A stretch of DNA of 64,000 bases from Ignavibacteriota bacterium (GTDB lineage: Bacteria > Bacteroidota > Ignavibacteria > UBA10030 > UBA6906), in the NCBI GenBank assembly GCA_003157485.1, contig PMJQ01000099.1, forward strand, positions 5,660 to 69,659, given 5' to 3'. Below are positions 1,377 to 59,595 of the stretch, piece by piece. The notes below the pieces were generated by a model, which had not been told where the DNA came from, ran no database searches, and worked only from the letters and a program-made list of their open reading frames with translations. Every line of letters begins with the position of its first letter. Position 1 is the stretch's first letter. The position numbers were made by a program, and so were the translations under genes.

Positions 1377-1408
1377 ATCGCATCAATTTACGTGGGAATA
1401 AAAGTCTC

Positions 1409-1618
1409 TCAGGCGGGATCGAACCCGCCGGGATGAAACGGATGACAGCGGCCGATGCGCTTCAGCGCGCGCCAGAGCCCGCGCCCCGCCCCGTATTTGG
1501 AAACCGCGTCCATTGCATACTGGGAACATGAAGGGGAGAATCTGCACGTGTTCGGGGGGAGAAGCGGGGAAACAAGCACCTGGTACGCCCGGAGGACAAG
1601 AAGCACGCCATGTTTCAT
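1409..1618 (-). CDS. yidD: Membrane protein insertion efficiency factor YidD
   Basis: 69 aa with a YidD-like sequence ([37 protein letters not shown]). It lies in the conserved position between rnpA and yidC. Confidence 0.9.
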
Positions 1619-2004
1619 GCGCGCCCTCTCACGGCCGCCGCGCAGACTTTTCTGCAGAGTGAATTCATGTCCATGCTGACGCGGTCGAATCTGAATGGTG
1701 CCTGCCGTGTGCCCTTTCCCCCGTTGTAGATGAAAAGCACGTTGAGGGAATCTCCGGCAGTCTCAGCAGCACCCGCCAGCATGTCCCTCTCCCTGTCATA
1801 GGCTGCGCGCATGAGTCTCTTTGCCCTGTTTCTTCTCACGGCATTGTATCTCCTGGCAGAGACGGAAAAGCCGGCACGCACCCGCGTCCCGGCTCCTGTT
1901 TCCCACCGGAAGAAACACCGCACCACTTCGCCATCGACTTTCCTCCCTGACCTGTACAACACCTGGAAGGAATCCCGACCCCGAAGCGTTTCCGCCTTCC
2001 TCAC
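1615..2004 (-). CDS. rnpA: Ribonuclease P protein component
   Basis: 129-aa basic protein directly downstream of rpmH, and its end overlaps yidD by 4 nt. Size, charge and position are typical of RnpA. Confidence 0.85.
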
Positions 2005-2151
2005 CTACCGTTCGTCGCTTACAGTAAGTTTCTTCCTGCCGCGAGCCCGCCGCCGGGCGAGCACTTTTCGCCCGGTTTTCGTTGCCATGCGGGCGCGGAA
2101 TCCGTGCGTGTTCTTACGCTTCCTGTTGTGTGGCTGAAAAGTGATGCTCAT
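2005..2151 (-). CDS. rpmH: 50S ribosomal protein L34
   Basis: Not in the ORF track because it is under 60 aa. Hand translation from the ATG (complement of 2149-2151) gives [48 protein letters not shown], a clear L34 signature. Its stop abuts the rnpA start. Confidence 0.85.
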
Positions 2152-2290
2152 CCCGAACTCCCGCACTTTGTGTCAGAATCCCAGCAATCACCGGACATTC
2201 GTACAGCCGGATATATCACGTGAAGGGATACAAGGTATAAAAATTATGCCATAGACACAAGGAAACCCCAGGGAAAAAGAAATATTGATC

Positions 2291-2319
2291 TTGCGTCGGC
2301 TTCCCCATTGTAGTATAAT
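2291..2319 (+). promoter_or_regulatory. Sigma70-like promoter candidate (TTGCGT-17 nt-TATAAT) facing dnaA
   Basis: The -35-like hexamer at 2291-2296 and a perfect -10 TATAAT at 2314-2319 are separated by a 17-nt spacer. The element lies ~290 nt upstream of the dnaA ATG, with the DnaA-box cluster between it and the gene. Confidence 0.4.
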
Positions 2320-2427
2320 CTGAGAGTGAAGCGTTGCGATCCCCGGGTGCACAATTTGTTAACAAGTCCCAGTTCGGTTTAAGCCCCACCGTGTCAACTG
2401 CTCTCTGGTTTCCGATCTGATTCCGGA

Positions 2428-2583
2428 TGTTGATAATCGACAAAACCACCAGCAAATGACCCGATTTTAGGATGGTTTTGTTTTCCACAAAGCTGTTGAT
2501 AAGTTATTGATACTTTTCTTCCCGCGTGTCACCGTGTGCACTGTTGATAGTTTTGTTGATAACCTCGCCCGCGGTGTGCATAA
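2428..2583 (+). promoter_or_regulatory. Cluster of DnaA-box-like 9-mers upstream of dnaA
   Basis: Exact TGTTGATAA appears three times (2428-2436, 2494-2502, 2554-2562). Also present are TGTTGATAG (2542-2550), TTTTCCACA (2481-2489, the reverse orientation of the box) and TGTGCATAA (2575-2583). All are within one mismatch or so of the canonical TGTGGATAA/TTATCCACA. Confidence 0.55.
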
Positions 2584-2606
2584 CCCTCTAATCTATTGGA
2601 CGACAA

Positions 2607-4079
2607 ATGGATTCCAGTCCCCAGCTCATTATCAACCCGTCCGACGAGGATCAGGCGCGCGCTGTCTGGAACGCGTGCCTGGACCATATCAGGGAGAGTG
2701 TAAACACACAGAGTTTCAAGACGTGGTTCGAGCCCATGATCCCGATTCACCTGCGGGGGGGCAAACTGACCGTTCAGGTGCCAAGTCAATTCTTCTATGA
2801 CTGGCTCGAAGAGCATTACTATACGGTCATCAGCCAGACGATCGAGACGGTTCTCGGAAAGGATGCGCATCTTGAATATTCCGTTCGGACGGATGAGCCT
2901 CAGATAGACCTGGATTATCAGATTACCCCGCCGCCTGTACAGCGGCCCGAGAGGAGGACATTTCCGCCTCAGCCGACATCATTCACCGTTCCTCCGCCTC
3001 CACCATTCGTCGCAGGGAGAAGCGAGGGGACGCCCGGATCCTTTCAGACGTTCCTTAATTCCCGCTATACATTCGAAAATTTCATCAAGGGGGACAGCAA
3101 CCAGCTGGCGCGCGCGGCGGCTTCCGCCGTAGCCAATAACCCCGGAGGCACGTCGTTCAACCCTCTCGTTATCTACGGGACCACGGGCCTGGGGAAGACC
3201 CACCTCATCCAGGCAATCGGGAACCATGCCATAGCTCACGGAAAGGCAAAACGGGTTATCTACGTTTCAAGCGAGAGATTTACCGTCGAGTTCGTCGAAG
3301 CGATACAGCGTGATACGACAAACGAATTTGCCGGATTTTACAGGAGCATGGACATCCTGATCGTCGACGATATACAGTTTTTCGCGGGGAAGGAACGAAC
3401 CCAGGATCATTTTTTCCATACGTTCAACGAATTACACCAGCTCGGAAAGCAGATCGTCCTCTCGTCGGACAGGCCGCCGAAAGAGCTGAAGGGGCTGGAT
3501 GACCGGCTCCTCTCAAGGTTTCAGTGGGGACTGACGTCGGATATCCAGCCTCCGGATCTCGAGACCCGCATTGCGATCCTCCTCAAGAAGAGTGAGAATG
3601 AGCGTATCAATCTTCCCCAGGACGTCGTTGAATGCATCGCATCCAACGTAACGTCAAACATACGGGAACTGGAAGGCTGTCTGATCAGCCTCATGGCAAA
3701 GGCTTCCCTGGAAGGAAGGGAGATTACCGTCGATCTGGCGCGGGAAGTGCTCAAGGTTGTTGTTGGAGACGTCAAATCGCCGTTGACGATCGAGACCATC
3801 CAGCGCACCGTGTGCGATTATTTCAGCATTCCCGAGGATCTCATCCGGGCAAAAACGCGAAAACAGGAAATCGTGAACGCCCGTCAGGTAGCGATGTACC
3901 TGGCAAAAGAACTCACAAACTGCTCTCTGAAAACGATCGGCCTTCACTTCGGCGGGAGGGACCATAGCACGGTGATTCACGCATATCAGTCGGTCGAAGA
4001 TCAGATGCGCATCGACCAGAAATATCAGGCAAACGTTCAGCAAATCAGACGGCGCCTCCAGATGCTGGGACATGTATAA
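2607..4079 (+). CDS. dnaA: Chromosomal replication initiator DnaA
   Basis: 490 aa with an AAA+ Walker A (GTTGLGKTHL), a sensor region and a C-terminal DnaA-box-binding domain (IVNARQVAMYLAKELTNCSLKTIGLHFGGRDHSTVIHA). A proline-rich linker follows the N-terminal domain. Confidence 0.97.
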   Translation: MDSSPQLIINPSDEDQARAVWNACLDHIRESVNTQSFKTWFEPMIPIHLRGGKLTVQVPSQFFYDWLEEHYYTVISQTIETVLGKDAHLEYSVRTDEPQIDLDYQITPPPVQRPERRTFPPQPTSFTVPPPPPFVAGRSEGTPGSFQTFLNSRYTFENFIKGDSNQLARAAASAVANNPGGTSFNPLVIYGTTGLGKTHLIQAIGNHAIAHGKAKRVIYVSSERFTVEFVEAIQRDTTNEFAGFYRSMDILIVDDIQFFAGKERTQDHFFHTFNELHQLGKQIVLSSDRPPKELKGLDDRLLSRFQWGLTSDIQPPDLETRIAILLKKSENERINLPQDVVECIASNVTSNIRELEGCLISLMAKASLEGREITVDLAREVLKVVVGDVKSPLTIETIQRTVCDYFSIPEDLIRAKTRKQEIVNARQVAMYLAKELTNCSLKTIGLHFGGRDHSTVIHAYQSVEDQMRIDQKYQANVQQIRRRLQMLGHV

Positions 4080-4467
4080 TTTCGATCAGTGTGTTTAATT
4101 ATGTTCACAACATTGTGAGGAGTGTGTGATCTGTCGTGTAACGACTGTGCATACTTCATTCCTTGTTCTGTTACTTGCTCTTCACACCAATCTTTGTGCA
4201 TGGAACATTCCTCTGTGCACACGCTGACATTTCAAGTTCTTTCTCACCTTACTCTGCATACCTGAGCAGCACTCACCGCTTCTTTTGACCGTCTGACACT
4301 TCTCCACATATAAACACAGCTTATAATAAGTATTACTCTTATATATAGACACGTAAGAAGAGATACCACGGTTTCATGGAAGGTTGTTTTTCCATGGCTT
4401 TTTGCATAAATTATAAGGGTTTTTCTTCTCATGTAAATGTTCATCTAGTCCACCTCAGGAGAATGCA
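4080..4467. promoter_or_regulatory. AT-rich dnaA-dnaN intergenic region; candidate DNA unwinding element / oriC segment
   Basis: This 388-bp spacer has visibly lower GC than the ~60% flanks. It contains runs such as ACATATAAACACAGCTTATAATAAGTATTACTCTTATATATAGACACG (about 4300-4350). A single DnaA-box-like TTCTCCACA sits at about 4299-4307. The dnaN RBS (AGGAGA) is at its 3' end. Confidence 0.45.
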
Positions 4468-5580
4468 ATGAAATTCACCGCCAACAGCATTGAACTCCAG
4501 CGCACGCTAAATAAGGTCGGTGGTGTAGTTCCCTCAAAATCCACCATGCCTATTCTCGAAAATATTTTGTGTGAATTGTTGGGAAATATGCTGACACTGA
4601 CGGCGACGGATCTCGCAATTTCGTTGACGGTATCTCTTCAGGTTCGCGGTTCGGAAGACGGCAGAATTGCCATTCCCGCGAAACGACTTATGGATACGAT
4701 GAAATCGCTCCCTGATACAAGCACGACGTTTTCCATCGATACCGGGGCAAATAAAATCAAAATTACGACGGAAAACGGAGAGTACGGACTGACGGGAGAA
4801 ACGGCAAAGGACTTTCCGCCCGTTCCGCCGTTTAAGGGTACATCAGAGTTTTCCATAGACAGTAACATTCTGCGCGGCCTTATTCACAGGACCACATTTG
4901 CCGTAAGCACAGATGAACTGAGACCTGCCATGATGGGGGTATTATTTCAGGCAAAGGATACGGACCTGCGCGCGGTATCGACGGACGGACACAGGCTGGT
5001 AAGGCTGACCTACAGGCAGCAAAAGCCGCTTACGATGAAAAAGGACATTGTTATTCCGGCCAAGGCACTTCTCATCCTCGGCAAGTCCATAGACGAAGGA
5101 GATACGGCAATAAGCGTCAGCGATACGCATGTGAAGTTTACGTTCGGTCCGTCGTTCCTTGTCTCCCGCCTCATCGACGAAACGTACCCGACGTATGAAG
5201 CGGTGATCCCCGCGGAGAACGACAAGCAGATGACTGTCAAACGGGACGACATGATTTCCTCTATTCGGCGTGTTGCGCTCTACGCCAGCGCGACAACGCA
5301 TCAGATTCGGTTTGACATTGTGAAATCCGCGCTCCAGATAACCGCCCAAGACCTCGATTTCGGCGGCGAGGCCAAGGAGACAATTCCGTGCACATTTACG
5401 TCGGATGCGCTCGAGATAGGATTCAATTCCGCATATCTGATCGACATCCTTTCGCACCTTGAAAGCGAACAAGTGACGTTCCGCTTCAGCACGCCGACGC
5501 GGGCCGGCATTGTTGCGCCAGTGGGAAGTGACAGCGACACCGTGCTCATGCTAGTAATGCCGGTGCGGTTGAATACATAA
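4468..5580 (+). CDS. dnaN: DNA polymerase III beta sliding clamp
   Basis: 370 aa starting MKFTANSIELQRTLNKV..., with an AGGAGA RBS upstream. It occupies the canonical position after dnaA. Confidence 0.95.
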   Translation: MKFTANSIELQRTLNKVGGVVPSKSTMPILENILCELLGNMLTLTATDLAISLTVSLQVRGSEDGRIAIPAKRLMDTMKSLPDTSTTFSIDTGANKIKITTENGEYGLTGETAKDFPPVPPFKGTSEFSIDSNILRGLIHRTTFAVSTDELRPAMMGVLFQAKDTDLRAVSTDGHRLVRLTYRQQKPLTMKKDIVIPAKALLILGKSIDEGDTAISVSDTHVKFTFGPSFLVSRLIDETYPTYEAVIPAENDKQMTVKRDDMISSIRRVALYASATTHQIRFDIVKSALQITAQDLDFGGEAKETIPCTFTSDALEIGFNSAYLIDILSHLESEQVTFRFSTPTRAGIVAPVGSDSDTVLMLVMPVRLNT

Positions 5581-6758
5581 GGGGTGTTGCCACATGCTTC
5601 CCCGACGCGGTCCCGCCTCCGGCGGGACCGCTGTATTGACGGGCACGCCACAGACCATGATCCTTTCCAGAATCAGACTCGGCAACTTCCGGAACCATGC
5701 TGCAACGGCCATCGAGTTGGGTGGGGGTATTAACGCCTTTCTCGGCGACAACGGTCAGGGAAAGACAAACATACTGGAAGCGGTCTCGTATCTCAGTCTT
5801 ACGAAGAGTTTCTATGCATCCGGCGACTCCGAAGCGATTGAGATCGGTACCGGGGGATTTGACGTTGAAGGGGTCCTTGTCTCTGACGCGGGGGTGCAGC
5901 ACCAGGTCAGCGTGACATGCGCGCGGCTGCCGCAGGCGAAACGGTTTCTCATCAACGGCTCGCCGCCGGAACGGCTTGCCGCAGTCATCGGACGGTTCCC
6001 CGTTGTCGTCCTTTCCCCGGAAAAAGGTCCCATAACGTTTGGCGGCCCGGGCGAGCGAAGAAAATTCATGGACCTTGCCCTCTCGCAAGTAAGCGGCGCG
6101 TATCTTGAGGAAATCCTCGAATACCGGAAAGCGCTCAGGCAACGGAACAGGATACTCACCAACAACCGCGCAAAGGGCTTTCTGCCGCCCGGAGTGATCG
6201 AGCCGTGGACGGAAAGCCTGGTGGCCTACGGGAGCAGAGTTGCGCACCGCCGTGCGATGTTTGTCACCGACCTACGCAGCCACATCGTAAGCGCATACCG
6301 TACGATAATGCCGGAGGCGGAGACTCCGGACATCGCCTACGTTTGCGGGTTCGCAGCGGGGGAAGGCGCTGACGCCCGGGCATATGCGGCGTCTTTGTCC
6401 GCGGATCTTGAAACGAGGAGTACCGAGGAGCGCCGGCGCGGCCTGACCCTTGCGGGTCCTCACCGGGACGATCTGCTTCTGACGATCAACGGAATGAACG
6501 TACAGCGGTTTGCCTCGCATGGGCAGCACAAGACACTCCTTGTGGCTATGAAGATTGCGGAATATTCCTATATGCAGGAGAGGCACAATGAAACACCGAT
6601 GCTCCTCCTGGACGATGTGTTCAGCGAGCTCGACAAGGGGCGCGTCCACCGTATCCTCTCCTTCGCCGCAGGGCTCGGGCAGGTGATGATCACGGCGACA
6701 GAGGGAACAGTGTTCGGCTCCTCGATCGCGTGGGGAAGACAGAACAGGAGATTTATCG

Positions 6759-9174
<2,416 letters not shown>

Positions 9175-9212
9175 ACGAGCAGCCACTCCGGAACAACACA
9201 CTCTGAAACGCC

Positions 9213-11951
9213 ATGGCAACTGTGAACGAAAAAATCATCCCGGTCGACATTGAAGATGAAATGAGGGGATCGTACATCGACTACTCGATGTCGGTCATTG
9301 TCGCGCGTGCCCTCCCTGACGTGCGTGACGGACTGAAGCCGGTGCACAGGCGGGTGCTCTTCGGGATGCAGGAACTCGGGCTGGCGGCAAACCGCGCCTA
9401 CAAAAAGTCGGCGCGCATCGTCGGCGAGGTGCTGGGGAAATATCATCCGCACGGCGATTCGGCGGTATACGATACCATGGTGCGCATGGCACAGGACTTC
9501 TCCATGCGCTATCCGCTCGTGGACGGCCAGGGGAATTTTGGGTCTGTTGACGGCGATTCGCCCGCGGCGATGCGGTACACCGAGGCGCGCCTGTCGCGCA
9601 TCGCGGAGGAGATGCTGAAAGACCTCCAGAAGAACACCGTGGATTTTGTCCCGAACTTCGACGACACGCTTACGGAACCCTCCGTCCTCCCCGCGGTAGT
9701 TCCGAACCTCCTCGTCAACGGCACGAGCGGCATCGCTGTCGGGATGGCGACAAACATCCCGCCGCACAATCTCGGAGAAGTTGTCGACGGATGTATCGCC
9801 CTTATCAGGGACGAGTCCCTGACCGACGAAAAGCTCATGAAGTTTGTGAAGGCGCCGGATTTCCCGACGGGAGGAATCATATACGGGTTCGAAGGTGTGA
9901 AGAGCGCGTACACGACCGGACGGGGAAGGATTGTCGTACGTGCGAAGGCGAGCATCGAGACAGGGAAGAACGACAGACAGAGCATCGTGGTGACGGAGAT
10001 TCCGTACCAGGTCAACAAAGCGAACCTCATCGAGAAGATCGCCGATCTCATCAATGAGAAGAAGCTCGAGGATATTGCGGATATCCGCGACGAGTCGGAC
10101 AGGGACGGGTTCCGGATCGTCATAGATCTGAAACGCGACTCGAACGCGGAAGTCATCCTGAATAACCTGTACAAGCACACGCAGATGCAGACGACGTTCG
10201 GGGTCATTATGCTTGCGCTCGTGGAGGGAAGGCCGAAAATCCTCACGCTGAAGGAGATGATCCGGCGGTTTATCGATCACCGGAATGAGGTTGTCGTCCG
10301 GCGCTCGAAGTTTGAGCTCGACGAGGCGGAGAAACGCGCGCACATCCTCGAGGGATACATCATCGCGCTCGACAACATTGACGCGATTGTAAGGCTCATC
10401 AAGGGATCGAAGGACGTCGAGACCGCCCGGACCGGGCTGATGAAGAAGTTCAAGCTGTCGGAGATCCAGGCGAAGGCGATCCTGGAGATGCGTCTCCAGC
10501 GTCTCACGGGACTCGAGCGGAAGAAGATCGAGGACGAGTACCGCGAAACGATAAAGCTCATCGAACGGCTCAGGGCTATCCTGAAGAGCAAGCAGCTCCA
10601 GATGGAGATTATCAAGGATGAACTCCTTGAGATCCGGAAGAACTACGCCGACGAGCGGCGTACGGAGATCGTGTACACCGCCGAAGAGTTCAGCATTGAA
10701 GACATGATCGCGGAAGAGCAGGTCATGATCACGATAAGCCACGGCGGGTTCATCAAACGATTTCCGGTAAGCGGGTACCGCCGCCAGACACGGGGAGGGA
10801 GGGGGAGTACCGGTGCAACGACGAGGGAAGATGACTTTATCGAGCACATGTTCGTGGCGAGCACACACGATTACATCATGCTCTTCACGAACGAAGGGAG
10901 ATGCTACTGGTTGAAGGTGTTCGAGATCCCGGAGGGGGGGAGGGCGTCACGCGGGAAATCGATTGCCAATCTTATCTCCAAGGAGCAGGCGGATTCCATT
11001 GCTTCGTATGTCTCTGTCAAGAACTTCGAGGACCCCCTATTCGTGCTCATGGTGACGGAGCAGGGAATGATAAAGAAGACCCCGTTGAGCGAGTTCAGCA
11101 ATCCGCGCAGGACAGGGATCGGCGCGATCGGGCTTGCAAAGGGGGACAGGCTCATCGAAGTCCGGATGACAGATGGGTCGCAGGACGTCGTAATAGGGAC
11201 GCACGACGGACTGGCGATCCGGTTTCACGAGCAGGAGGCCCGCCCCATGGGACGCTCGGCGGGAGGCGTGCGGGCCATACGGCTTGACAAGAAGGACAGG
11301 GTCATCGGTGCGGTGGTGCTCAGGAAGAGCGGGACGACGATTCTTGTGGCGACCGAGAAGGGTTTCGGCAAGAGGAGTGAGCCGGATGAGTACCGCGTCA
11401 GCCACCGGGGCGGGAAGGGAATATTCACCGTAAAGACTACGGATAAAACCGGCAGGATGGTTGCCATTCGGGAAGTTCTGGAGTCCGATGACATTGTCGT
11501 CGTCTCAAGCGGCGGGATCGTGATCCGGCAGCATGCTTCCGAGGTCCGGCTTGCCGGAAGGAATACGCAGGGCGTCCGCCTGATAAAACTCGGCGAAAGG
11601 GACACGGTGTCGGATGTTGCTTCCGTGATGGCGGAGGATCAGGATATCCCGGATACAAACGGAAAAAAAGGAGGGGACTCACCCGAAGGCGAAAAAAAAA
11701 CTCTGATCCGGAACAGAAGTAACGCAACAAAAGGGAAGGCGAAAGAGAACGGCGCCTCCAATATCCCAGCTTCAACCGCACGTGAGGCGGAAAGCGCAAA
11801 AACTTCCGTACCGCGGAAGACGGCACCCGGCAAGAGGCCGGCGGTCAAAACGATACCCCGGCATGCCGGGAAGCCGAAACGGGAACAGCGTTCGCCCGCG
11901 AAGGCACGCACTCTGATGCGCGGCCGGAATCAGAAGAAGAAACGAAAATAG
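9213..11951 (+). CDS. gyrA: DNA gyrase subunit A with a ~110-aa Lys/Arg-rich C-terminal tail
   Basis: 912 aa with the catalytic region ([10 protein letters not shown]) and the GyrA-box region (QTRGGRGS). A strongly basic low-complexity tail follows the beta-pinwheel domain (...[30 protein letters not shown]...RNQKKKRK). Confidence 0.95.
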
Positions 11952-11964
11952 ATCCCCGTGCCCC

Positions 11965-14133
11965 TCAGATCATGCCGCTTCGTTTGCGTATGATCCATTC
12001 AGCGGAAAACAGGGCGATCACGAGTGCGAGCAAGTACGGCCAGCGGTGAAGCTCGATTGCCTCCGTTTTCTGCTCTTCGCGTGCGGCAAGGGGTCCGAGT
12101 GTGCGGAGCTTTTCCCGCAAATTCCCGGCATCCCTGGAAGGGAGATACTCTCCGCCCGTCCTGTAGGCAATCTGGCGGAGAATCTCCGCATTCATCCTCG
12201 TGTCCAGGTATTCCAGGTTCAGGCCGCCGACAAGAAATGAGCCCGAGTCGTGTCCGGCATCATGTCCCCCCTTTGAAGCGGCGGCCCTGAAGGTAAAATC
12301 CCCAGCCGGAAGCCCCTCCACGGAACCGTCGTACCTTCCGCTTCCCAGCGGGTGCAGGTCGGTGTGAATGCTTGCGCCGCCGCCGGAAATCTCAACAGAG
12401 ACCTGTGCGTCGTCAACCGGCTGAGATTCCTCATTGTACACCTGCCCTGAAAAGGCGACCAGTTCTCCCCGGGAGAACTGGTCGCGGACCGGAACGACGC
12501 GGACGTTTCGCCCTTCGTCTCGCGACGTGAGCCAGCGGAGAGCCGAAGAGAGAAAAGAGGCAAACTGCGGCGCCGTATCTGGATTTCCCTGAGCCATAAG
12601 GCGCCACCGCCAGAGACCGTATCCCATAATGCTGAGCGACCGCGTGCCGGCGATGTCACGGACAGCCATAAACGGTTGGGGAAGGAGGACATTTCCTATC
12701 CGTGGGGACCCGAGTGCGACGGATCCTTCGCGGAGTCGATAAGCCGCCCGGGATGCAAAGACCGGCGGGAGATTGCTCCACACGTCGCGCCGGGTATCCG
12801 GCCCGAGCGCCAGAAGTGGGTTTTCAAGACGGAACGGATCGGGCACGAATTCAACTTCCCGCTCACCCGGAGTCGATTCCTCCTGAATCACCGGAAGCGA
12901 AGGCGCCATCGCGGGGAGTTTTGACTGATCAATCGATTTTCCCCCGACGAACAGGAGGGGCTTTTTTCCTTCGGTTATTGCCGATCGCAGAAGTTCCACC
13001 GCGCCTGCCGCCGTTGACGCATCGGGCATCCCAATGCACAGGATACAGTCTGCGCTGTCGACTGCCCGGGGTGTCAGCGCGCCTTCATAGTATCCCCCGC
13101 CGAGTTTCTGCGTCAGCGCCTGCACGGATATGTTGGGATTCTCCGCAAGAGTCGTCCGGATGACGCTCAGATCCGGGCTTGGACCCGATGCGAGAATGAG
13201 AACGCGCATCGTGCTCCTTAGGACCTTTACGACGAAGAACCGCCTGTTATTCGCGGTTGTCAGTTCACCGGGAAGAGGGGAGACATTTACGGAGTACCGG
13301 TGGGAACCCTCTCCCGCCGGGGCATACGAAAGCCTGGCGGGTGCCTCCGCCGTTCCGCCGGGAAGCAGAACCGTTGTCCGGTCGAGCGTCCTTGTCCCCT
13401 CGCTGAGCGTTACCTCAACTTTCTCCCCGCCGTAGCCCGAGCTCTTGATGACCGCGTCGACAGGCGCCATCGCGCCGGCATACACGATGTCGTTTGCCGT
13501 GACGCGGGAGACCAGAACATCCTTCTGCTCCGCCGTATCGCCGATGCCGATCGGAAAGATGGGGATGCCCAGGTCGCCCGCTCTGTACACGGGGTTATCT
13601 CCCTTCGTGAACATTCCGTCCGTCAGCATGACGACCGCCCGGATATTATGACTCTCCCGTTGGTGTACGAGCTCGCGAAGCGCGCCGGCGATATCGGTGA
13701 CTTCATCGCTGAGGGTGTCGGGCGGCTGCGCAAGAGGTCCCCGGAGCGATGCTCCGAACGAATAGAGAAGCGTTTGAACTCCCGGGGGGACGGTCCCGGG
13801 AACGACGTCAGCAAGCAGGGTTCTGATCTGTGCGGCCCGGTCCCCCGTCCCGTCCACGATTGTCATGCTGGCGCTTCTGTCGGCAAGGACTGCAATGACA
13901 GGCGGATGGCGGATCACGGTCGACGTACGGAGGACGGGTTCCAGGAGCAGGAGGAGGACAAGAGCGAGGGCCGTCCCGCGAAGAACGCTGAGGGTAATCC
14001 GTCGTGAGCGCGCCACCGGCGGAAGCGTGAAACGGTAAAAGAAATAGGAGAGGCCGGCCGCAAGGCCGATCAGGAGCGCGGCGAAGAGCAGGGACGAAGT
14101 AAACGAAAACTCGATTGACGGGAGGCCGAACAT
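11965..14133 (-). CDS. VWA-domain membrane protein with N-terminal double-transmembrane domain (BatA-like)
   Basis: Two N-terminal TM helices are followed by a VWA MIDAS motif (DRSASM, DxSxS) and an LTDG motif. A long C-terminal region resembles a class-I amidotransferase-like domain. The gene lies immediately downstream of the MoxR ATPase. Confidence 0.65.
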   Translation of the reverse strand: MFGLPSIEFSFTSSLLFAALLIGLAAGLSYFFYRFTLPPVARSRRITLSVLRGTALALVLLLLLEPVLRTSTVIRHPPVIAVLADRSASMTIVDGTGDRAAQIRTLLADVVPGTVPPGVQTLLYSFGASLRGPLAQPPDTLSDEVTDIAGALRELVHQRESHNIRAVVMLTDGMFTKGDNPVYRAGDLGIPIFPIGIGDTAEQKDVLVSRVTANDIVYAGAMAPVDAVIKSSGYGGEKVEVTLSEGTRTLDRTTVLLPGGTAEAPARLSYAPAGEGSHRYSVNVSPLPGELTTANNRRFFVVKVLRSTMRVLILASGPSPDLSVIRTTLAENPNISVQALTQKLGGGYYEGALTPRAVDSADCILCIGMPDASTAAGAVELLRSAITEGKKPLLFVGGKSIDQSKLPAMAPSLPVIQEESTPGEREVEFVPDPFRLENPLLALGPDTRRDVWSNLPPVFASRAAYRLREGSVALGSPRIGNVLLPQPFMAVRDIAGTRSLSIMGYGLWRWRLMAQGNPDTAPQFASFLSSALRWLTSRDEGRNVRVVPVRDQFSRGELVAFSGQVYNEESQPVDDAQVSVEISGGGASIHTDLHPLGSGRYDGSVEGLPAGDFTFRAAASKGGHDAGHDSGSFLVGGLNLEYLDTRMNAEILRQIAYRTGGEYLPSRDAGNLREKLRTLGPLAAREEQKTEAIELHRWPYLLALVIALFSAEWIIRKRSGMI

Positions 14134-44331: not shown

Positions 44332-45318
44332 TCACGCATTTCCGACAACGGCGTTGATCGCGGCGACATTCACAATATCGCTCACGCTGCACCCTCTGGA
44401 AAGATCGAATGCGGGCTTGCGGAGGCCCTGGACGACCGGCCCTATTGCTTCTGCCCCCCCGAGGCGCTGTGCAAGCTTGTACCCGATATTCCCCGCGTTC
44501 AGATCGGGGAAGATAAGAACATTCGCCTTCCCCGCGATGGGGCTTCCGGGCGCCTTTGAAGCGCCCACCTTCGGGACGATGGCCGCGTCAAGCTGGAGCT
44601 CTCCGTCCATCTGGATATCGGGTCTTTTCTTCCGGAATATCTCCGCAGCATGCTGGACTTTTTCGACGAGGGGATGGCTGGCGCTCCCTTTTGTGGAGAA
44701 CGAGAGGAGGGCAACGCGCGGCTGTTCGCCCGTGAGCCTCTTGTGATTTTCCGCGGTCGAAATCCCGATGTCCGCAAGTTGTTCGGCCGTAGGATCGGGG
44801 ACGACCGCGCAGTCCGCAAACGAGAAAACCTGGTGTGGAAATACCATAAGGAAGAAGCTCGAAACAATCGTGATACCTGGGGCAAGTCCGATCACCTGTA
44901 TGCCTGCCCTTAGTACATCCCCGGTGGTAGAAAGCGATCCCGCGACGCTGCCGTCCGCCATCCCCTCCCTGACCATCATGGCGCCAAAAAAGAGGGGGTT
45001 CGTCATCGTCTTCTGTGCCTCTGTAAACTGAATTCCCTTCGCCTTCCGAAGATTGAAGAAGATATGAGAAAAATCGCTCAACTTATCCGACAACTCGGGG
45101 TCGATGACTCTAATCCCTCCCAGGGCGGTTCCGTTCTTTTTTGCCTGATCCTGAATAGCGCCGGTTTTGCCTATCAGGAGGGGTTGGACGATCCCCTGGT
45201 CAGCGAGAATCCGGGCCGCCTGTATGGCCCTTTCATCCGTTGCATCAGGGAGAACAACGGTTCTTTTGAGGCTTTTGGCCTTGGCCACTATGCTGCTCAT
45301 AAGTTCTGTTGGTAGCAT
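44332..45318 (-). CDS. pta: Phosphate acetyl/butyryl-transferase
   Basis: The start was revised to [15 protein letters not shown], which aligns to the N-terminus of short-form Pta. Conserved FSTKGS and DxxLxxIGxS-like segments are present. Confidence 0.85.
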
Positions 45319-45541
45319 GGTATTCCGTCCAGTTTCAGGTGAGAAGGAGGGGTTGATTTGCCCTGTCAAGATAGTGAACCACGTACACAAATCAAACAAA
45401 AACCACTGGATGTCGCCGAATCGACCTTGCCAATTTGACAGATTATTGCGAAAATTAAGAAGAATTAACCAAAATATGCCATTTTACGATTGATTTTCTG
45501 TCAGATAGTGGTAGATTAGGTTCCTGAGAACCCTCTTAATT

Positions 45542-51819: not shown

Positions 51820-52006
51820 GAAGCCTTCCTACAATGCTACAAGAGTTCGATCAAGGTCTGAAACCTCAAGATATCGAAAAGGGCGTAGAAAGTCAATAAA
51901 CCTTGCCTTTATTTCAACCCGGCCGTATATTTCAATTTCCGTCTGATATGGAGTTTCCCTCCCCCGTGCATGCGGGGAACGGACGGATCACGCTCCCGGA
52001 GGATCG

Positions 52007-54437: not shown

Positions 54438-55148
54438 TTACCGGACGAGGGCCAGCATCTCCTTGACGGCCCGATCAAGACCCACAAACAGCGCGCGCAC
54501 GATCACCGCGTGTCCGATGCTCACCTCCTCGATGTCCGCGAGCGTTCGGAAAGGAATCAAGTTGAGATAATTCAGCCCGTGCCCCGCATTCACGCCGAGC
54601 CCGAGTCCGCGCGCCAGGCGTGACGATTCCCGCACGGTGTCCAGGCGCGTGCGATGTTCTTCCTCCGTGCGCGCATTGGCGAAGGCGCCAGTATGAATCT
54701 CGATCGTGTCAGCGCCGGCCTGCTTCGCGGCCTCAATCTGCTCCCGCAGGGGATCGATAAAGAGGCTCACCCGGATCCCGTGGTCCTTCAGACGCGAAAC
54801 GACGCCCCGCACGCGCTCCATGTTCCCCCGCACATCAAGCCCCCCCTCCGTTGTCAGTTCCTGCCGCCGCTCTGGAACGAGCGTTGCAAGCTCGGGTCGC
54901 GTCGCGATCGCGATGGCGACGATCTCGTCGGTCGCGGCCATCTCCAGGTCGAGCTTTGTTTTTACGGTCTCTTTCAGGAGGCGCAGATCCCTGTCGTTGA
55001 TATGCCTCCGGTCCTCCCGCAGGTGGCACACGATGCCGTCCGCGCCGGCAAGCTCGCACAGATGTGCCGCTGTTACCGGATCTGGCTCGTTTCCGCCCCG
55101 GGCCTGGCGCAGCGTGGCAACATGGTCGATGTTGATGGAAAGTTTCAT
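54438..55148 (-). CDS. pdxJ: Pyridoxine 5'-phosphate synthase
   Basis: MKLSINIDHVATLRQARGG... canonical PdxJ; 236 aa. Confidence 0.93.
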   Translation of the reverse strand: MKLSINIDHVATLRQARGGNEPDPVTAAHLCELAGADGIVCHLREDRRHINDRDLRLLKETVKTKLDLEMAATDEIVAIAIATRPELATLVPERRQELTTEGGLDVRGNMERVRGVVSRLKDHGIRVSLFIDPLREQIEAAKQAGADTIEIHTGAFANARTEEEHRTRLDTVRESSRLARGLGLGVNAGHGLNYLNLIPFRTLADIEEVSIGHAVIVRALFVGLDRAVKEMLALVR

Positions 55149-56068
55149 AGGCGTTTTCGGACGATATACTGAAGATGATCCGGTCGTTTTGTCACAAGCT
55201 GGACGCCGGCGGGACAGGCAACTTCCGCATCGATGGCGCCGGTGGAGTCGGCGGCAATCTCCGTATACGATGTTTCAACGCGAAAGTCCGTTGCGCTGAG
55301 TACAGACAGCTGCCGGATTCCCGCCCGCACCACGATTTCGATACGCGGCGGGATAAGGATCACTTCCCTGTTCGCAGGCACGGCGGACACCTGCACTGGA
55401 AGTCCCGGGATGATCTTTTCGGCGAAGGGTTCGACGGAGATGGCGATGCGCACGGCGGGAACCGAGAACGCTATCTCGAACGGGTCGGCGGATGCTAGCG
55501 GGACTTCAGCGTCAAGCGAACCCCTGATGTTCTCGAATACCCGGCGCTCCGTCTTCCAGCTGTCAAGGCCGCGCAGAACTGTTTCCGCGCCGGTCAGCGT
55601 CACGCTGTCCGGGGCCACGGAAGTTGGTCCGACCTGTCCGTACCCCTCCCGGAAGCTCGCTAGGCAGTCAAGAACCACGGGAACCCGTTTGCGTACGGAA
55701 GTACCCAGCTCGATCCGGAGCGAATCGGGCTTGACGTCGAGGAGTCTCACTCCCGGGGCGAGGGAGATATGATCTGCAAAATCATTGAATGTAAGGGGCC
55801 GGCGGCTTGAGGGGAGCGATGCCGCAGAGAGGGTGATGACGGGTGCGCGCCCGAGAAGCACGCCCGCAAGCCGCCAGCCTTCCCCGCGGAAACGGAGCTG
55901 CAACGTGTGCGGGAGTGGCGTCTGCACTGCCATACCGGGGGGGATCTCCTGGAGCACGAACGGCACGGCGACGGTGGTTTCGTAGTCCTCGCGCATGGTG
56001 ACGGAAACCCATGCCAGCACGCCGAAGAGGGTGGAGAAAATCACGATATAAAGGGAGCGTTGCTGCAT
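55145..56068 (-). CDS. YbbR-like domain protein (CdaR-like)
   Basis: N-terminal TM followed by repeated beta-rich YbbR-like modules. Its stop overlaps the pdxJ start by 4 nt. Confidence 0.6.
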   Translation of the reverse strand: MQQRSLYIVIFSTLFGVLAWVSVTMREDYETTVAVPFVLQEIPPGMAVQTPLPHTLQLRFRGEGWRLAGVLLGRAPVITLSAASLPSSRRPLTFNDFADHISLAPGVRLLDVKPDSLRIELGTSVRKRVPVVLDCLASFREGYGQVGPTSVAPDSVTLTGAETVLRGLDSWKTERRVFENIRGSLDAEVPLASADPFEIAFSVPAVRIAISVEPFAEKIIPGLPVQVSAVPANREVILIPPRIEIVVRAGIRQLSVLSATDFRVETSYTEIAADSTGAIDAEVACPAGVQLVTKRPDHLQYIVRKRL

Positions 56069-56073
56069 CGGCC

Positions 56074-56114
56074 GGGGAAAACAAAAAGACCCCGCCGGAG
56101 AAAACCTGCGGAGT
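56074..56114 (-). terminator. Intrinsic terminator after the BMC-H gene pair
   Basis: On the minus strand an 8-bp stem with one G-U pair (GACUCCGC / GCGGGGUC) and a 12-nt loop is followed directly by CUUUUUGUUUU. It starts about 20 nt after the stop of 56133..56663. Confidence 0.5.
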
Positions 56115-56132
56115 CGGTCGTCAGAAGCGGGT

Positions 56133-56663
56133 TCAGTTGCCGGCCCGCTTCTTCATGAGTTCGTGAATGAGGACGTCCTTGTTTGCCATCGAGATCTCCC
56201 GTCCCTGGATGGAGAGACCCTCGGTATTCCTCGCGAGACTCCTGAGCTGGTGGACCGTCATAGTGTCGAGCTGCGAGCGGAATTCCACGTCGTCATCACT
56301 TGCGACAAAATCAAATTTCTCCTCATCCCCATCCGGAATCTCAGAAGGGGTCTCGCCCGGAACCGTCCCGGGCTCCGCACCGCGGAGCGCCCGCCGGGAG
56401 AGAATATCTTCGAGATCATCCGATGGGCGCGGGATGACGTGCGTGGAGACAAGCTCACCCACCCTCCGGGCGGCGGCTGCGCCAGCATCGACGGCGGCCT
56501 TCACCGCCGCCACCTCGCCGATCACCTGGACAGTCACCAGTCCGTTGCGGATATACTCCGTCCCCAGCAGGGAGACGTTGGCGGTCTTCATCATGACGTC
56601 GGCGGCCTCGATCGATCCGACGAGGCCGCGTGTCTCAATCATTCCCAGGGCGTAGTCAAGCAT
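56133..56663 (-). CDS. BMC-H microcompartment shell protein with ~85-aa C-terminal extension (acidic linker + Rho_N/SAP-like helix-hairpin)
   Basis: Residues 1-90 form a canonical Pfam00936 BMC domain ([30 protein letters not shown]...VHVIPRP). The tail (...[18 protein letters not shown]...[42 protein letters not shown]) fits the Rho N-terminal/SAP-like L..L..LA...G.......K.DLI..L pattern. Confidence 0.85.
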
Positions 56664-56666
56664 GGG

Positions 56667-56963
56667 TCATTTTGCTGCGGGGCGCCGCGGGAGGATCATC
56701 TCCACATCGGCATGGGGACGGGGAATGACGTGAACGGACACGAGTTCGCCGACTCGCTGCGCGGCAGCAGCGCCCGCGTCCGTGGCCGCCTTCACCGCGC
56801 CGACGTCCCCCCGCACCATCACCGTCACATAACCTCCGCCGATGACTTCCTTGCCGATCAACTGCACCCGCGCCGCCTTCACCATGGCATCGGCGGCCTC
56901 GATCGATCCCACGAGACCTTTCGTCTCCACCATACCGAGTGCGTCTAATGAGATGTCCGCCAT
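56667..56963 (-). CDS. BMC-H microcompartment shell protein (PduA/EutM/CcmK-type)
   Basis: 98 aa nearly collinear with PduA ([30 protein letters not shown]...[43 protein letters not shown]). An AAGGAG RBS sits 3 nt upstream. Confidence 0.92.
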
Positions 56964-57015
56964 TGGCCATGTTCTCCTTGTTGAGTGGCGTGAGGCCCCG
57001 CGTCAGGGCACGGGG

Positions 57016-57044
57016 AATATACCCAAGGTGTTGCACATTGTCAA
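57016..57044 (-). promoter_or_regulatory. Near-consensus sigma70-like promoter (TTGACA-17 nt-TATATT) driving the BMC-H pair
   Basis: On the minus strand TTGACA (57044-57039) and TATATT (57021-57016) are separated by exactly 17 nt. The element is directly after the YfhO stop and about 45 nt upstream of the BMC-H RBS, and a short hairpin (CCCCG...CGGGG) lies in the leader. Confidence 0.45.
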
Positions 57045-57051
57045 CCGCGCA

Positions 57052-59595
57052 TCACGCGGTGGCGCTTCCCCCTGCCGGCCTGTCCGTACCGGAAGGAGAC
57101 GCACGTCGTTTCAGCGTCTGTCGCCGCCAGAACCCCGCCGCCGCGCAGATCAGAACAACGCCCCATGCAGCGTGCGTCAGCACCCAGCCGGCGCGGTACA
57201 TCGGCGGATCGAACGTAAAGACCAGCTCGTGCGTTCCTCCGGGGACGAGAACCGAGCGGAGGATATAGTCCGTCCGGAAAATCTCCGTCTCCGTTCCGTC
57301 GATGAACGCCTTCCAGCCGGAGGGGTAGTACACTTCGCTCAGCACAAGGAGAGCGGGTGCAGGAACGTCCGTGGCGATCCGGATTTCACGGGATTTGTAC
57401 GAGGTGATGCGGGGGGCGTGGGTGCTGTCTGCCGGAACGATCTCCCCGGGGAGTCGTTTATACAGAACGGCCGTGCGCGCCGGATCGAATCCCCGGGAAT
57501 TCAGGATGCGAAACACTTCGTCATCGTCCGCCGCCATCACCGACTCCGCTGCGTAAAATGCGCGGGGCAGTGCGGCGGGATTCCTGTACGTGAGAACCCG
57601 TTCGGCCTGGTCCACGTTCACGAGCTGGAACTGCGGCTCCGGGAGCCTTCCGTGGACGACAAGAAACTGCACGTTGAGCATATCCACGACATTCATGTTA
57701 ACGGGAAACGACGGATCGGTCCCCCTGTACATGCAGGAATCCAATAGCGTCTGGTAGATCTTGAGTTTTGCGGGGCTGTACCCCGTAATCGACTGAAGGC
57801 CGTGGTAGGCGAACGCATTGTCCATGTACAACGGATCGCGCGGATCGATCCCCGCAAAGAGACGGAACAGCCCCGGCTGGCTCTTGAGAAACGTCGTCGT
57901 GGGGTCGGGCCGGAATGCCTGCGCGAGTTCCTGGGAAGGCTTCGGGTCGATAAACCGCGACGCGACAAGGGACAGATCGATTGTTACGAGGACGAGGAGT
58001 GCCGCGGAAAACGTCAGCTCGCGAAGGCGGCCTTTCAGCCAGGCGCAGCAGAGCGCGCAGAGGGCGGCGGCGAGGAGTGAGAACTTCACGTAGTCCTTCC
58101 AGAAAATGTCAAAACGCGCCTGCCGGAGTTGTGCGATCACGCGGCCCGCGCGCGCGCCGTACTGCTGCTGGATCTGCTCGGCCTGATCCTGCTTCGTGAA
58201 CATCGATGCGGGAAGACTCTCGAGAAGACTATTCTGGAACAGAAGTGCGACAACGAGGAGCCCCGCGATGACCCCGCCCGCGGCAAGGAGGACGCGGTAG
58301 AGCTTCTGCGCATCGACGCCCGATTCCCGTTCGCGTGTAGCAAGAAGGGCGGAGAACCCCGTCGCGCCCAGAACGCCCGTGGCAAACGGGAGAAGGTGAA
58401 GAATCTGCTCCGGCGCGCGGAACTTGTTGAAAAAGGGAAGCCACGTGAACAGCAGTTGATACAGAAGCGAAAAATTGCTGCCGAAGGAAACCAGGATAAT
58501 CAGGATTGTAACAACGCCGAAAAACATGACGAAGCGCGTCCTGCGGTACACAAACGCAAGTGTCCCGAACAGGATCGGGAAGAGCCCCACATACACACTG
58601 GAATTCGTCCAGGGGATCATCGGCCCCCAGTAGAAATCCGATTTCATCCCGAAGAAGCCGGGGATCAGCAGCGTGATGAGTTCTCCCGGGTGCCATGACC
58701 AGTTTGTCGCGTAATCGTAGGCAAGCCCCCCCGGCGCTCCCGCCGTCCCCCCCCCGCGCATGGAGAACTGCGCATAGTCATACACCGACAGATAGATGTA
58801 GGAGGAAATGCAGAATCCCAGGAGAATTGCGCCGGCGAACAGCGCCACCTTGAAGGCGGCCTTCGGAATGTTCCCTTTGAAATCCGGCAGGATATGATAG
58901 ACAAGGTAGAGCCCGAGAAACATGAAGGCGTAATACACGATCTGCATGTGGTTCGTGAGCATCAGCGTCCCGATGGCCGCCGCCAAGAGTCCCAGGCTCA
59001 GCGCGTCGCGCCGTTCCAGAAGGGAGTGCGTGAGAAGAACGACGAGGGGAAAATAACTGAGTGCCATAAGCTTCGAACCGTGCCCTTCGCCGGCAAGTCC
59101 CACCATGTAAGGGCTGAGCATAAACGTCAGCGCGGCAAGCAGCGCTGCGGGACGGGAAAAATTCCAGACCCTCATAAGGAAGAACATGAACACGCCGCCC
59201 ATGAAACAGTAGACGACAAGCCAGGTCCATGTACCGTTCAGATAGAGAAGGTTGAGAACGGTCTGGAGAACGGTCTGCACATAGCTCACGTTGTGCGGGA
59301 GATAGGCGACATTGCCGAACGTCGGCATGCCGCTGAAAAAATACGGCATCCAGACAGCGTCAACCCCTTCCGCTTTCTCGATCTCGTTTCCGGCGTGTGT
59401 GTAACTGAAGGCCGCGGCAGTGTCGCCCTGGGAGGCAAACGCGGCGTTGTCGAAGATGATCCCGCGGAAGACAATCAGCGTCACCGCGTACAGCAGAGCG
59501 ACGCTGAGGAGGTCAAGCGTCAGCGGGGAAAGCGATGAAAACGGAGAGGCCGGTTTCTCCGAGGCCCTGCGGTGGTCTTTCCTGGCGTGTGCCAT
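57052..59595 (-). CDS. YfhO-family polytopic membrane glycosyltransferase-like protein
   Basis: 847 aa with about 13 N-terminal TM helices and a large C-terminal extracytoplasmic domain. The N-terminal third matches the YfhO pattern. Confidence 0.75.
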   Translation of the reverse strand: MAHARKDHRRASEKPASPFSSLSPLTLDLLSVALLYAVTLIVFRGIIFDNAAFASQGDTAAAFSYTHAGNEIEKAEGVDAVWMPYFFSGMPTFGNVAYLPHNVSYVQTVLQTVLNLLYLNGTWTWLVVYCFMGGVFMFFLMRVWNFSRPAALLAALTFMLSPYMVGLAGEGHGSKLMALSYFPLVVLLTHSLLERRDALSLGLLAAAIGTLMLTNHMQIVYYAFMFLGLYLVYHILPDFKGNIPKAAFKVALFAGAILLGFCISSYIYLSVYDYAQFSMRGGGTAGAPGGLAYDYATNWSWHPGELITLLIPGFFGMKSDFYWGPMIPWTNSSVYVGLFPILFGTLAFVYRRTRFVMFFGVVTILIILVSFGSNFSLLYQLLFTWLPFFNKFRAPEQILHLLPFATGVLGATGFSALLATRERESGVDAQKLYRVLLAAGGVIAGLLVVALLFQNSLLESLPASMFTKQDQAEQIQQQYGARAGRVIAQLRQARFDIFWKDYVKFSLLAAALCALCCAWLKGRLRELTFSAALLVLVTIDLSLVASRFIDPKPSQELAQAFRPDPTTTFLKSQPGLFRLFAGIDPRDPLYMDNAFAYHGLQSITGYSPAKLKIYQTLLDSCMYRGTDPSFPVNMNVVDMLNVQFLVVHGRLPEPQFQLVNVDQAERVLTYRNPAALPRAFYAAESVMAADDDEVFRILNSRGFDPARTAVLYKRLPGEIVPADSTHAPRITSYKSREIRIATDVPAPALLVLSEVYYPSGWKAFIDGTETEIFRTDYILRSVLVPGGTHELVFTFDPPMYRAGWVLTHAAWGVVLICAAAGFWRRQTLKRRASPSGTDRPAGGSATA

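Follow-up and report, generated by a model that had tools for sequence, protein, structure and literature searches.

Why should two genes for hexameric shell proteins of a bacterial microcompartment (BMC) stand by themselves in the genome of a member of the Ignavibacteriota? The pair lies in a 64 kb stretch of DNA (contig PMJQ01000099.1 of assembly GCA_003157485.1, positions 5,660 to 69,659 of the forward strand), which was analysed at its full length and which we refer to as the window. We consider it likely that the pair is the two hexamer (BMC-H) genes of FRAG1, the “fragmented” microcompartment of the Ignavibacteriota, a system which was already catalogued in 2021 and whose function is unsolved; the pair is thus not new.

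The original prediction placed two BMC-H open-reading frames here, and both are present (Table 1), each with one PF00936 domain far above Pfam's gathering cut-off of 24.5 bits: BMC-H 1 matches the family with an E-value of 3.4e-29 (101.1 bits) and BMC-H 2 with an E-value of 2.4e-27 (95.1 bits). Residues 5-94 of BMC-H 1 align with the C. difficile EutM-type protein 4AXJ (E 2e-42), and the protein also matches PduA, EutM and Haliangium HO-5815 (5DJB, E 2e-34). Its edge motifs are K-A-A-R (within D-A-M-V-K-A-A-R-V) and P-R-P-H (within I-P-R-P-H), with a pore loop of I-G-G-G-Y, while BMC-H 2 has K-T-A-N and P-R-P-S at the edges and a pore loop of I-R-N-G-L. BMC-H 2 is built from a BMC domain (residues 5-80), a disordered acidic linker and a C-terminal helical domain, and its start follows the stop codon of BMC-H 1 after 3 nt. 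By homology to crystallised hexamers, both proteins would be expected to assemble into facet-tiling hexamers.

Table 1. Features of the window and of related contigs discussed in the text
Feature	Position	Strand	Details
BMC-H 1 gene	56667-56963	-	98 aa, canonical (“basal”) hexameric shell protein
BMC-H 2 gene (“Hext”)	56133-56663	-	176 aa, extended shell protein
BMC-H 2 C-terminal domain	56136..56294	-	~residues 124-176; modelled as SAP/Rho_N-type helix-extended-loop-helix
Putative sigma-70-type promoter	57016..57044	-	TTGACA (57044-57039), 17-nt spacer, TATATT (57021-57016); 11/12 in consensus scan
Predicted 5' leader	56964..57009	-	~46 nt; 6-bp hairpin 57009-56995; Shine-Dalgarno AAGGAG 56979-56974
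Terminator-like hairpin and T-run	56078..56115	-	hairpin 56115-56088, then UUUUUGUUUU (56087-56078)
YbbR-like gene (membrane-anchored)	55145-56068	-	overlaps pdxJ by 4 nt
pdxJ	54438-55148	-	downstream of YbbR-like gene
YfhO-like gene	57052-59595	-	directly upstream of the pair
Putative ETF promoter	51903-51931	+	TTGCCT-17-TATATT, ~75 nt upstream of ETF (electron-transfer flavoprotein) beta/alpha operon; same place in many relatives
Pta/Ptb-type phosphotransacylase	44332-45399	-	PF01515, E 1.6e-122; between miaB and GH130 gene
Left-end origin region	1-12000		rpmH, dnaA, dnaN, recF, DciA-family gene, gyrB, gyrA
dnaA	2607-4079	+	
dnaN	4468-5580	+	
recF	5594-6790	+	
gyrB	7114-9174	+	
gyrA	9213-11951	+	
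722-aa protein	11965-14133	-	no Pfam family on record; adjoins MoxR-type AAA ATPase; upstream of three SurA/PPIase genes
TTGACATACTGCTCCCTTTTTCGTATATT contigs			L093, L097, L102, L106, L112, L114, L118, L120, L122, L128
TTGACATACTGCTCCCTTTTTCGTATATT contigs, continued			L131, L136, L140, L145, L147, L151, L155, L157, L158

FRAG1 comprises 57 shell-protein-only loci, most prominent in the Ignavibacteria (Sutter, Melnicki, Schulz, Woyke, Kerfeld 2021, Nat Commun 12:3809, Supplementary Data 2; PMC8217296). According to this catalogue, FRAG BMCs occur in the Ignavibacteriae and related phyla with their genes remote from enzymes, and the parts of FRAG1 are distributed over up to six genomic places: a standard BMC-H with KAAN and (P/A)RPH as its inter-hexamer interface motifs, a BMC-H with a long C-terminal extension that forms an ordered domain, and, elsewhere, a triplet of pentamer (BMC-P) genes of the green/grey/orange clades (PMC8217296). 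A PduS/PduT pair is found in 24 of the 57 loci and is hence optional, searches of FRAG1 genomes for encapsulation peptides found none, and no enzymes were found for the FRAG types (PMC8217296). Among the entries listed in the catalogue's trees, the Ignavibacteria FRAG1 extended BMC-H (229 aa) and BMC-P (90-98 aa) are all tagged “sat”, and Ignavibacteria genomes flagged “incomplete” are also listed there with an extended BMC-H. Melioribacter roseus has both FRAG1 and a second type, MIC4; its seven BMC-P genes are spread over five loci (Axen et al. 2014). A text search of the literature returned no paper on FRAG1 later than the 2021 catalogue.

The pair shares with FRAG1 the lineage, the shell-protein-only locus and the combination of a standard with an extended BMC-H, and further agrees with it in the interface motifs (as the KAAR variant), the ordered C-terminal extension, its occurrence in Ignavibacteria and the lack of a signature enzyme nearby; none of the features compared sets it apart from the type. 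In content it also corresponds to a satellite BMC locus, in which contiguous shell genes encode only PF00936 or only PF03319 proteins (Axen et al. 2014): the window holds two contiguous PF00936 genes and no PF03319. The suggestion in the original prediction that the pair is a satellite of a distant BMC locus comes close to the documented FRAG1 and is only roughly right, because FRAG1 has no single main locus with enzymes. The description of the pair as an orphan is unproven.

The occurrence of the pair across the lineage was assessed by a scan of one genome per species, in which relatives of BMC-H 2 were found in 158 genomes; the loci of relatives were covered with 10 kb on each side. The 80 best loci come from metagenome-assembled genomes (MAGs), every one of which bears the label Ignavibacteriota, Ignavibacteriae, Bacteroidota or Chlorobi; with 85% identity, the closest relative of BMC-H 2 is in Ignavibacteriota MFD01476.bin.1.169. 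The pair is also present in near-complete long-read MAGs (contigs CAVZWW010000003.1, of 3.75 Mb, CAVOYH010000003.1, CAWDEM010000004.1 and CAWIOS010000015.1), and the organism of the window occurs in fen and peat samples such as JGI 3300014498 and 3300037212. Wherever the contig reaches in these 80 fetched loci, the two genes are adjacent and co-oriented with the standard BMC-H immediately upstream of the extended one, and none of the 80 has a third BMC gene within its flanks. BMC-H 1 is under extreme purifying selection: its median identity across the 80 species is 93%, whereas PdxJ reaches 70% and the YbbR-like protein 44%. The GC content across the pair equals that of its surroundings, and the order YfhO-like, BMC-H, BMC-H, YbbR-like, pdxJ and opposite-strand ETF is kept in most relatives down to ~60% identity; Ignavibacterium-type genomes have quite different neighbours. 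Horizontal transfer of the pair was considered and rejected on account of this uniform GC content and conserved synteny, and the two genes are best described as vertically inherited members of the core genome, judging by the comparison of loci. One MAG (Bacteroidota Yes70-14) carries the pair on two contigs, JASEHD010000175.1 (L070) and JASEHD010000135.1 (L071); either the pair has been duplicated there or the bin is mixed.

Several observations weigh against the assignment to FRAG1. BMC-H 1 has K-A-A-R in place of the textbook K-A-A-N (Asn to Arg), the 64 kb window contains no PduS/PduT pair, and the C-terminal sequence of BMC-H 2 has neither a Pfam match nor a PDB match in a profile search (E up to 10). 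BMC-P, moreover, was found for neither this genome nor any relative in the ±10 kb of each locus, and a pentamer-closed shell for this pair therefore rests on the literature. Six-frame open-reading frames of the window revealed no further BMC-H or BMC-T and no BMC-P, and no tandem-BMC protein is encoded in it. Searches for BMC-P with phmmer and a hidden Markov model from seven seeds found none in the window, in 92 related loci or in 72 metagenome loci (~1.9 Mb of fetched loci), with nothing better than E 0.01 and a chance hit of E 0.015 inside another gene. The seeds themselves matched PF03319 and the Haliangium seed is identical to 5V74; this BMC-P of Haliangium ochraceum (HO) was chosen because the catalogue places it in the “viridian3” group together with FRAG1 BMC-P. 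Against a 5.8-billion-protein set the seven-seed profile recovered cyanobacterial CcmL only, while every protein that the HO seed recovered is 73% or more identical to it, the named ones being from Haliangium or Kofleriaceae, and one 98-aa match lies in an HO-type locus with an aldehyde dehydrogenase. Pfam annotation of ~74 kb around the pair gave housekeeping and glycan genes only, with one Pta/Ptb gene of PF01515 (encapsulation peptides were not searched for). The earlier claim that no BMC-P, BMC-T or signature enzyme occurs within ±8 kb was thus borne out, the Pta/Ptb gene being just outside at 11 kb, and on the near (right) side of the window the 10 kb beyond its end hold no complete BMC locus.

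The C-terminal extension is the part of BMC-H 2 for which structure was informative. More than 120 homologues align with the protein over its full length, and in this alignment (A1) the BMC core is invariant, the acidic linker is variable and the last 45-50 residues are strongly conserved. Arg141, Arg145, Arg155 and Lys162 do not vary. In an AlphaFold2 model the BMC domain has a predicted local distance difference test score (pLDDT) of ~90, residues 94-117 fall below 50 and the C-terminal domain is again ordered; modelled alone, the last 59 residues reach a pLDDT of 89.7 and form four helices. The linker carries a net charge of -8 and the C-terminal domain one of +2. Domains of the SAP/Rho_N/LEM kind have two helices, an extended loop and the pattern L..L.V..LR..A...GL......K..LI..L, and the modelled C-terminal domain appears to be of this type, namely a SAP/Rho_N-type helix-extended-loop-helix module. 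The identification comes from structure comparison alone, since sequence was not informative: a PDB sequence search with the whole of BMC-H 2 matched the BMC domain alone and not the ~95 residues after it, and the match of a close homologue to Pfam Rho_N (E 0.0027) falls short of the cut-off. When 1.84 billion 50%-identity clusters were searched with a profile of the domain, 544 representatives were obtained (E ≤ 1e-3). In the best 150 of the 544, a BMC domain is present in 105 by Pfam and in 110 by local search, while 8 reach Pfam Rho_N (best E 2.7e-17), 1 reaches SAP and 1 SPOR. The module thus appears to occur almost only in fusion with BMC-H, and membership of the window's own copy in Pfam Rho_N is inconclusive by sequence alone.

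The signals that surround the pair are likewise conserved. The near-perfect TTGACA-17-TATATT promoter of the original prediction was recovered at the same place, 7 nt past the stop codon of the upstream YfhO-like gene, and in 81 of 85 loci the orthologous pair is preceded by the same architecture, in which neither TATATT nor the 17-nt spacing varies; transcription would start near 57009. The predicted ribosome-binding site AAGGAG is also there, 10 nt from the ATG of BMC-H 1, and AAGGAG or AGGAG is kept in nearly all relatives' loci. The proposed leader hairpin does fold (-15.3 kcal/mol) and is no better than shuffled sequence (z -0.97, not significant alone), its sequence being retained solely in the closest clade (L011-L016). 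Downstream, the hairpin has an 8-bp outer stem, including one G-U pair, and a 2-bp inner stem. Its claimed strength as an intrinsic terminator finds no support in folding energy (-23 kcal/mol over a 76-nt stretch, z -0.36 against shuffled sequence), and a terminator scan did not pick it up, the loop being too long for the scan; it finds support in relatives, since 39 of 48 distinct downstream regions have a hairpin and T-run ~45-50 nt past the stop codon, and the stem there is often ACTCCATCGG...CTGATGGAGT. The promoter and terminator signals are therefore above chance because they are conserved across relatives, not because of their folding energy. An Rfam scan of the leader and terminator region gave no family match and one chance-level hit only.

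With its own promoter and terminator, the pair was predicted to be a self-contained unit, which is too strong. The U-tract ends 9 nt from the ATG of the YbbR-like gene (56068) and a consensus scan found no promoter-like site between the two; the unit is therefore probably not fully insulated. Read-through is probably what serves the YbbR-like gene and pdxJ, and the hairpin may attenuate rather than insulate. The TATATT box also precedes the ETF operon and is therefore the lineage's usual -10 form, not special to the BMC-H pair. As for the prediction that the pair is highly expressed, the strong signals and their conservation are the sole basis on which such expression may be proposed.

Most relatives share an additional element near the promoter. 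In the 160 nt upstream of the first BMC-H gene (loci L007-L090; the window equivalent is 57000-57120), 51 of 77 distinct promoter regions contain the 7-mer GGGAGCA/TGCTCCC, compared with 3.3% of control windows; it is often an inverted repeat bracketing the -35 box, or lies within the 17-nt spacer or leader. It looks like an operator, and neither the window nor its closest clade has it. A shared regulon with BMC-P operons was sought by scanning metagenome contigs for the promoter together with the 7-mer and was rejected: none of the 72 hits encodes BMC-P, 42 are the BMC-H pair itself and ~20 others precede unrelated genes behind a near-identical promoter element. This near-identical promoter core, TTGACATACTGCTCCCTTTTTCGTATATT, is found upstream of unrelated genes on many metagenome contigs (Table 1), among them genes for substrate-binding proteins, a major facilitator superfamily (MFS) transporter and lipoproteins, and its flanks are conserved as well, such as ...ggtaatcat... 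on the upstream side and caacccaccccaaagcgagttcttatca on the downstream side. A promoter element that is repeated or mobile may be at work here, or else a consensus promoter of the whole lineage whose leader is conserved.

That no BMC-P was found within 10 kb in any of the 80 species, nor in the window, raises the alternative that the hexamers are used without pentamers, in sheets that stay open, in tubes or as a scaffold, which might be attached to nucleic acid through the SAP/Rho_N-type domain, would be made constitutively and would enclose no metabolism. The catalogue's lack of enzymes and encapsulation peptides for FRAG types would fit such a use, as would the position of the pair near the origin among housekeeping genes behind a constitutive-looking promoter, the sheets and nanotubes formed by BMC-H proteins alone that PMC10100840 describes, and the extended BMC-H of Ignavibacteria genomes that the catalogue lists as incomplete. 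We nevertheless regard it as unlikely: the definition of FRAG1 rests on a BMC-P triplet in the same genomes, seven BMC-P genes occur in Melioribacter, the absence of BMC-P covers the flanks of 10 kb on each side, BMC-H 1 keeps the canonical edge motifs for tiling closed shells, and nothing positively supports the non-canonical scaffold that the original prediction had offered. Improbable too, in our judgement, is the broader proposition that the pair encodes no inducible catabolic organelle but a constitutive housekeeping assembly whose role has nothing to do with aldehyde metabolism, be it a microcompartment tethered to nucleic acid or a lattice free of pentamers; that this assembly would consist mainly of the ultra-conserved BMC-H 1 and be anchored to the nucleoid or RNA by SAP/Rho_N-type domains on its outer face is a similarly speculative proposal.

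The pair could also be a satellite which supplies extra hexamers to an enzyme-bearing metabolosome elsewhere and tunes its permeability or positioning. One candidate is a MIC4-type locus, which encodes an aldehyde dehydrogenase, a phosphotransacylase (PTAC) and an aldolase and is known in some Ignavibacteria (PMC8217296), including Melioribacter, where it coexists with FRAG1; shell-tuning satellite hexamer loci are established for cyanobacterial CcmK3/K4, and a Pta/Ptb-type phosphotransacylase lies 11 kb from the pair. That gene, however, is of the general PF01515 type and sits among unrelated housekeeping genes, MIC4 loci have their own BMC-H (MROS_0101), and MIC4 numbers 15 loci across six phyla against 158 species with the pair. 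Given that no candidate main locus is nearly as widespread as the pair, we give this explanation little credence. The isolation of the pair from all other BMC genes might finally suggest that a microcompartment locus was lost and the pair is what is left of it, in decay, or that the pair was recently acquired by horizontal transfer and has no current function, an explanation which the conservation data effectively refute: BMC-H 1 has its median of 93% identity over 80 species, the frames are intact, the promoter, Shine-Dalgarno sequence and terminator are conserved, and synteny and GC content are those of resident genes.

If the pair belongs to FRAG1, as we prefer, it could work as follows. 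The conserved, strong sigma-70-type promoter and Shine-Dalgarno sequence would drive both genes, BMC-H 2 being translationally coupled to BMC-H 1 through the 3-nt gap; the hairpin and U-tract would stop most transcripts, with some read-through feeding the YbbR-like gene and pdxJ. BMC-H 1 would be the bulk facet-forming hexamer and BMC-H 2 a minority or accessory hexamer. The termini of BMC-H proteins lie on the concave face, which to our knowledge faces outward, towards the cytosol, in every solved shell (HO shell, Sutter et al. 2017), and the linker and SAP/Rho_N-type domain would therefore be on the cytosolic surface. There the domain might tether the shell to nucleic acid (nucleoid or RNA) or to a partner protein, and the polyhedra would, following the literature, be closed by the BMC-P triplet encoded elsewhere.

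The genomic surroundings place the pair in an origin-proximal region, ~52 kb from dnaA. Downstream of it lie the YbbR-like gene, pdxJ, a bifunctional-nuclease/UVR gene, ETF alpha and beta, rpsT and lptE, followed by a sigma-54 activator, a SPOR protein and miaB, and then by the Pta/Ptb gene, peptidases, a LytTR two-component system, dnaB, coaBC and gmk. Nothing links the Pta/Ptb gene, 11 kb away and among unrelated housekeeping genes, to the pair. No diadenylate cyclase gene adjoins the YbbR-like gene, and the conserved order of pair, YbbR-like gene and pdxJ may reflect co-transcription or only inherited order. Upstream is a glycan cluster of ~15 kb with GT2 and GT4 glycosyltransferases, several methyltransferases, a Wzx-like flippase and an epimerase, which is closed by a second YfhO-family gene (L091, 1-501); the 10 kb past the window's right end hold glycan-synthesis genes only. 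The pair was earlier described as lying inside an envelope-glycan locus. The cluster is there and is incidental, the conserved neighbours being the YfhO-like gene, the YbbR-like gene and pdxJ; a functional link was rejected, as the glycosyltransferases vary among relatives while the pair is constant and the neighbours in Ignavibacterium-type genomes are entirely different.

FRAG-type microcompartments are an acknowledged open problem, raised by the 2021 catalogue and not by the window's pair: uncultured phyla harbour them widely, and neither enzymes nor encapsulation peptides can be recognised for them. What is added here is the fold of the extension, the evidence for a constitutive core-genome status and the conserved promoter and terminator. 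A SAP/Rho_N-type module on the extended hexamer suggests a link to nucleic acid or to positioning, and BMC-H 1 is more conserved than a housekeeping enzyme (PdxJ). The almost invariant strong promoter and the origin-proximal core-genome location point to constitutive, abundant expression rather than substrate induction. Should pentamer genes truly be absent from many of these genomes, the lineage would depart surprisingly from the BMC paradigm. Two relatives, Ignavibacterium album and Melioribacter roseus, are in culture.

Among known systems FRAG1 is the closest, and the catalogue that defined it contains neither the fold of the extension, nor the conserved promoter and terminator, nor the synteny with the YbbR-like gene and pdxJ. 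EutK from the ethanolamine-utilisation microcompartment of E. coli is a BMC-H with a C-terminal helix-turn-helix domain that is putatively nucleic-acid-binding. BMC-H 2 resembles it in having a single BMC domain and a small helical domain of a nucleic-acid-binding class, an analogy drawn for FRAG1 extended BMC-H by the catalogue itself (PMC8217296), although the C-terminal domain of BMC-H 2 is not homologous to that of EutK. Haliangium ochraceum has a BMC-P triplet of the same colour clades as FRAG1, its main-locus BMC-P falling in “viridian3” like the green BMC-P of FRAG1; unlike the pair, it has one BMC-H, three BMC-T and an aldehyde dehydrogenase in a main locus, with no extended BMC-H. The cyanobacterial CcmK3/CcmK4 satellite locus shares with the pair two adjacent BMC-H genes that are separately transcribed at a distance from other shell genes. 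The carboxysome, however, has a defined main locus and known cargo and CcmK3/CcmK4 have no nucleic-acid-binding-type domain, whereas the pair includes the presumed major facet protein and not accessory paralogues only.

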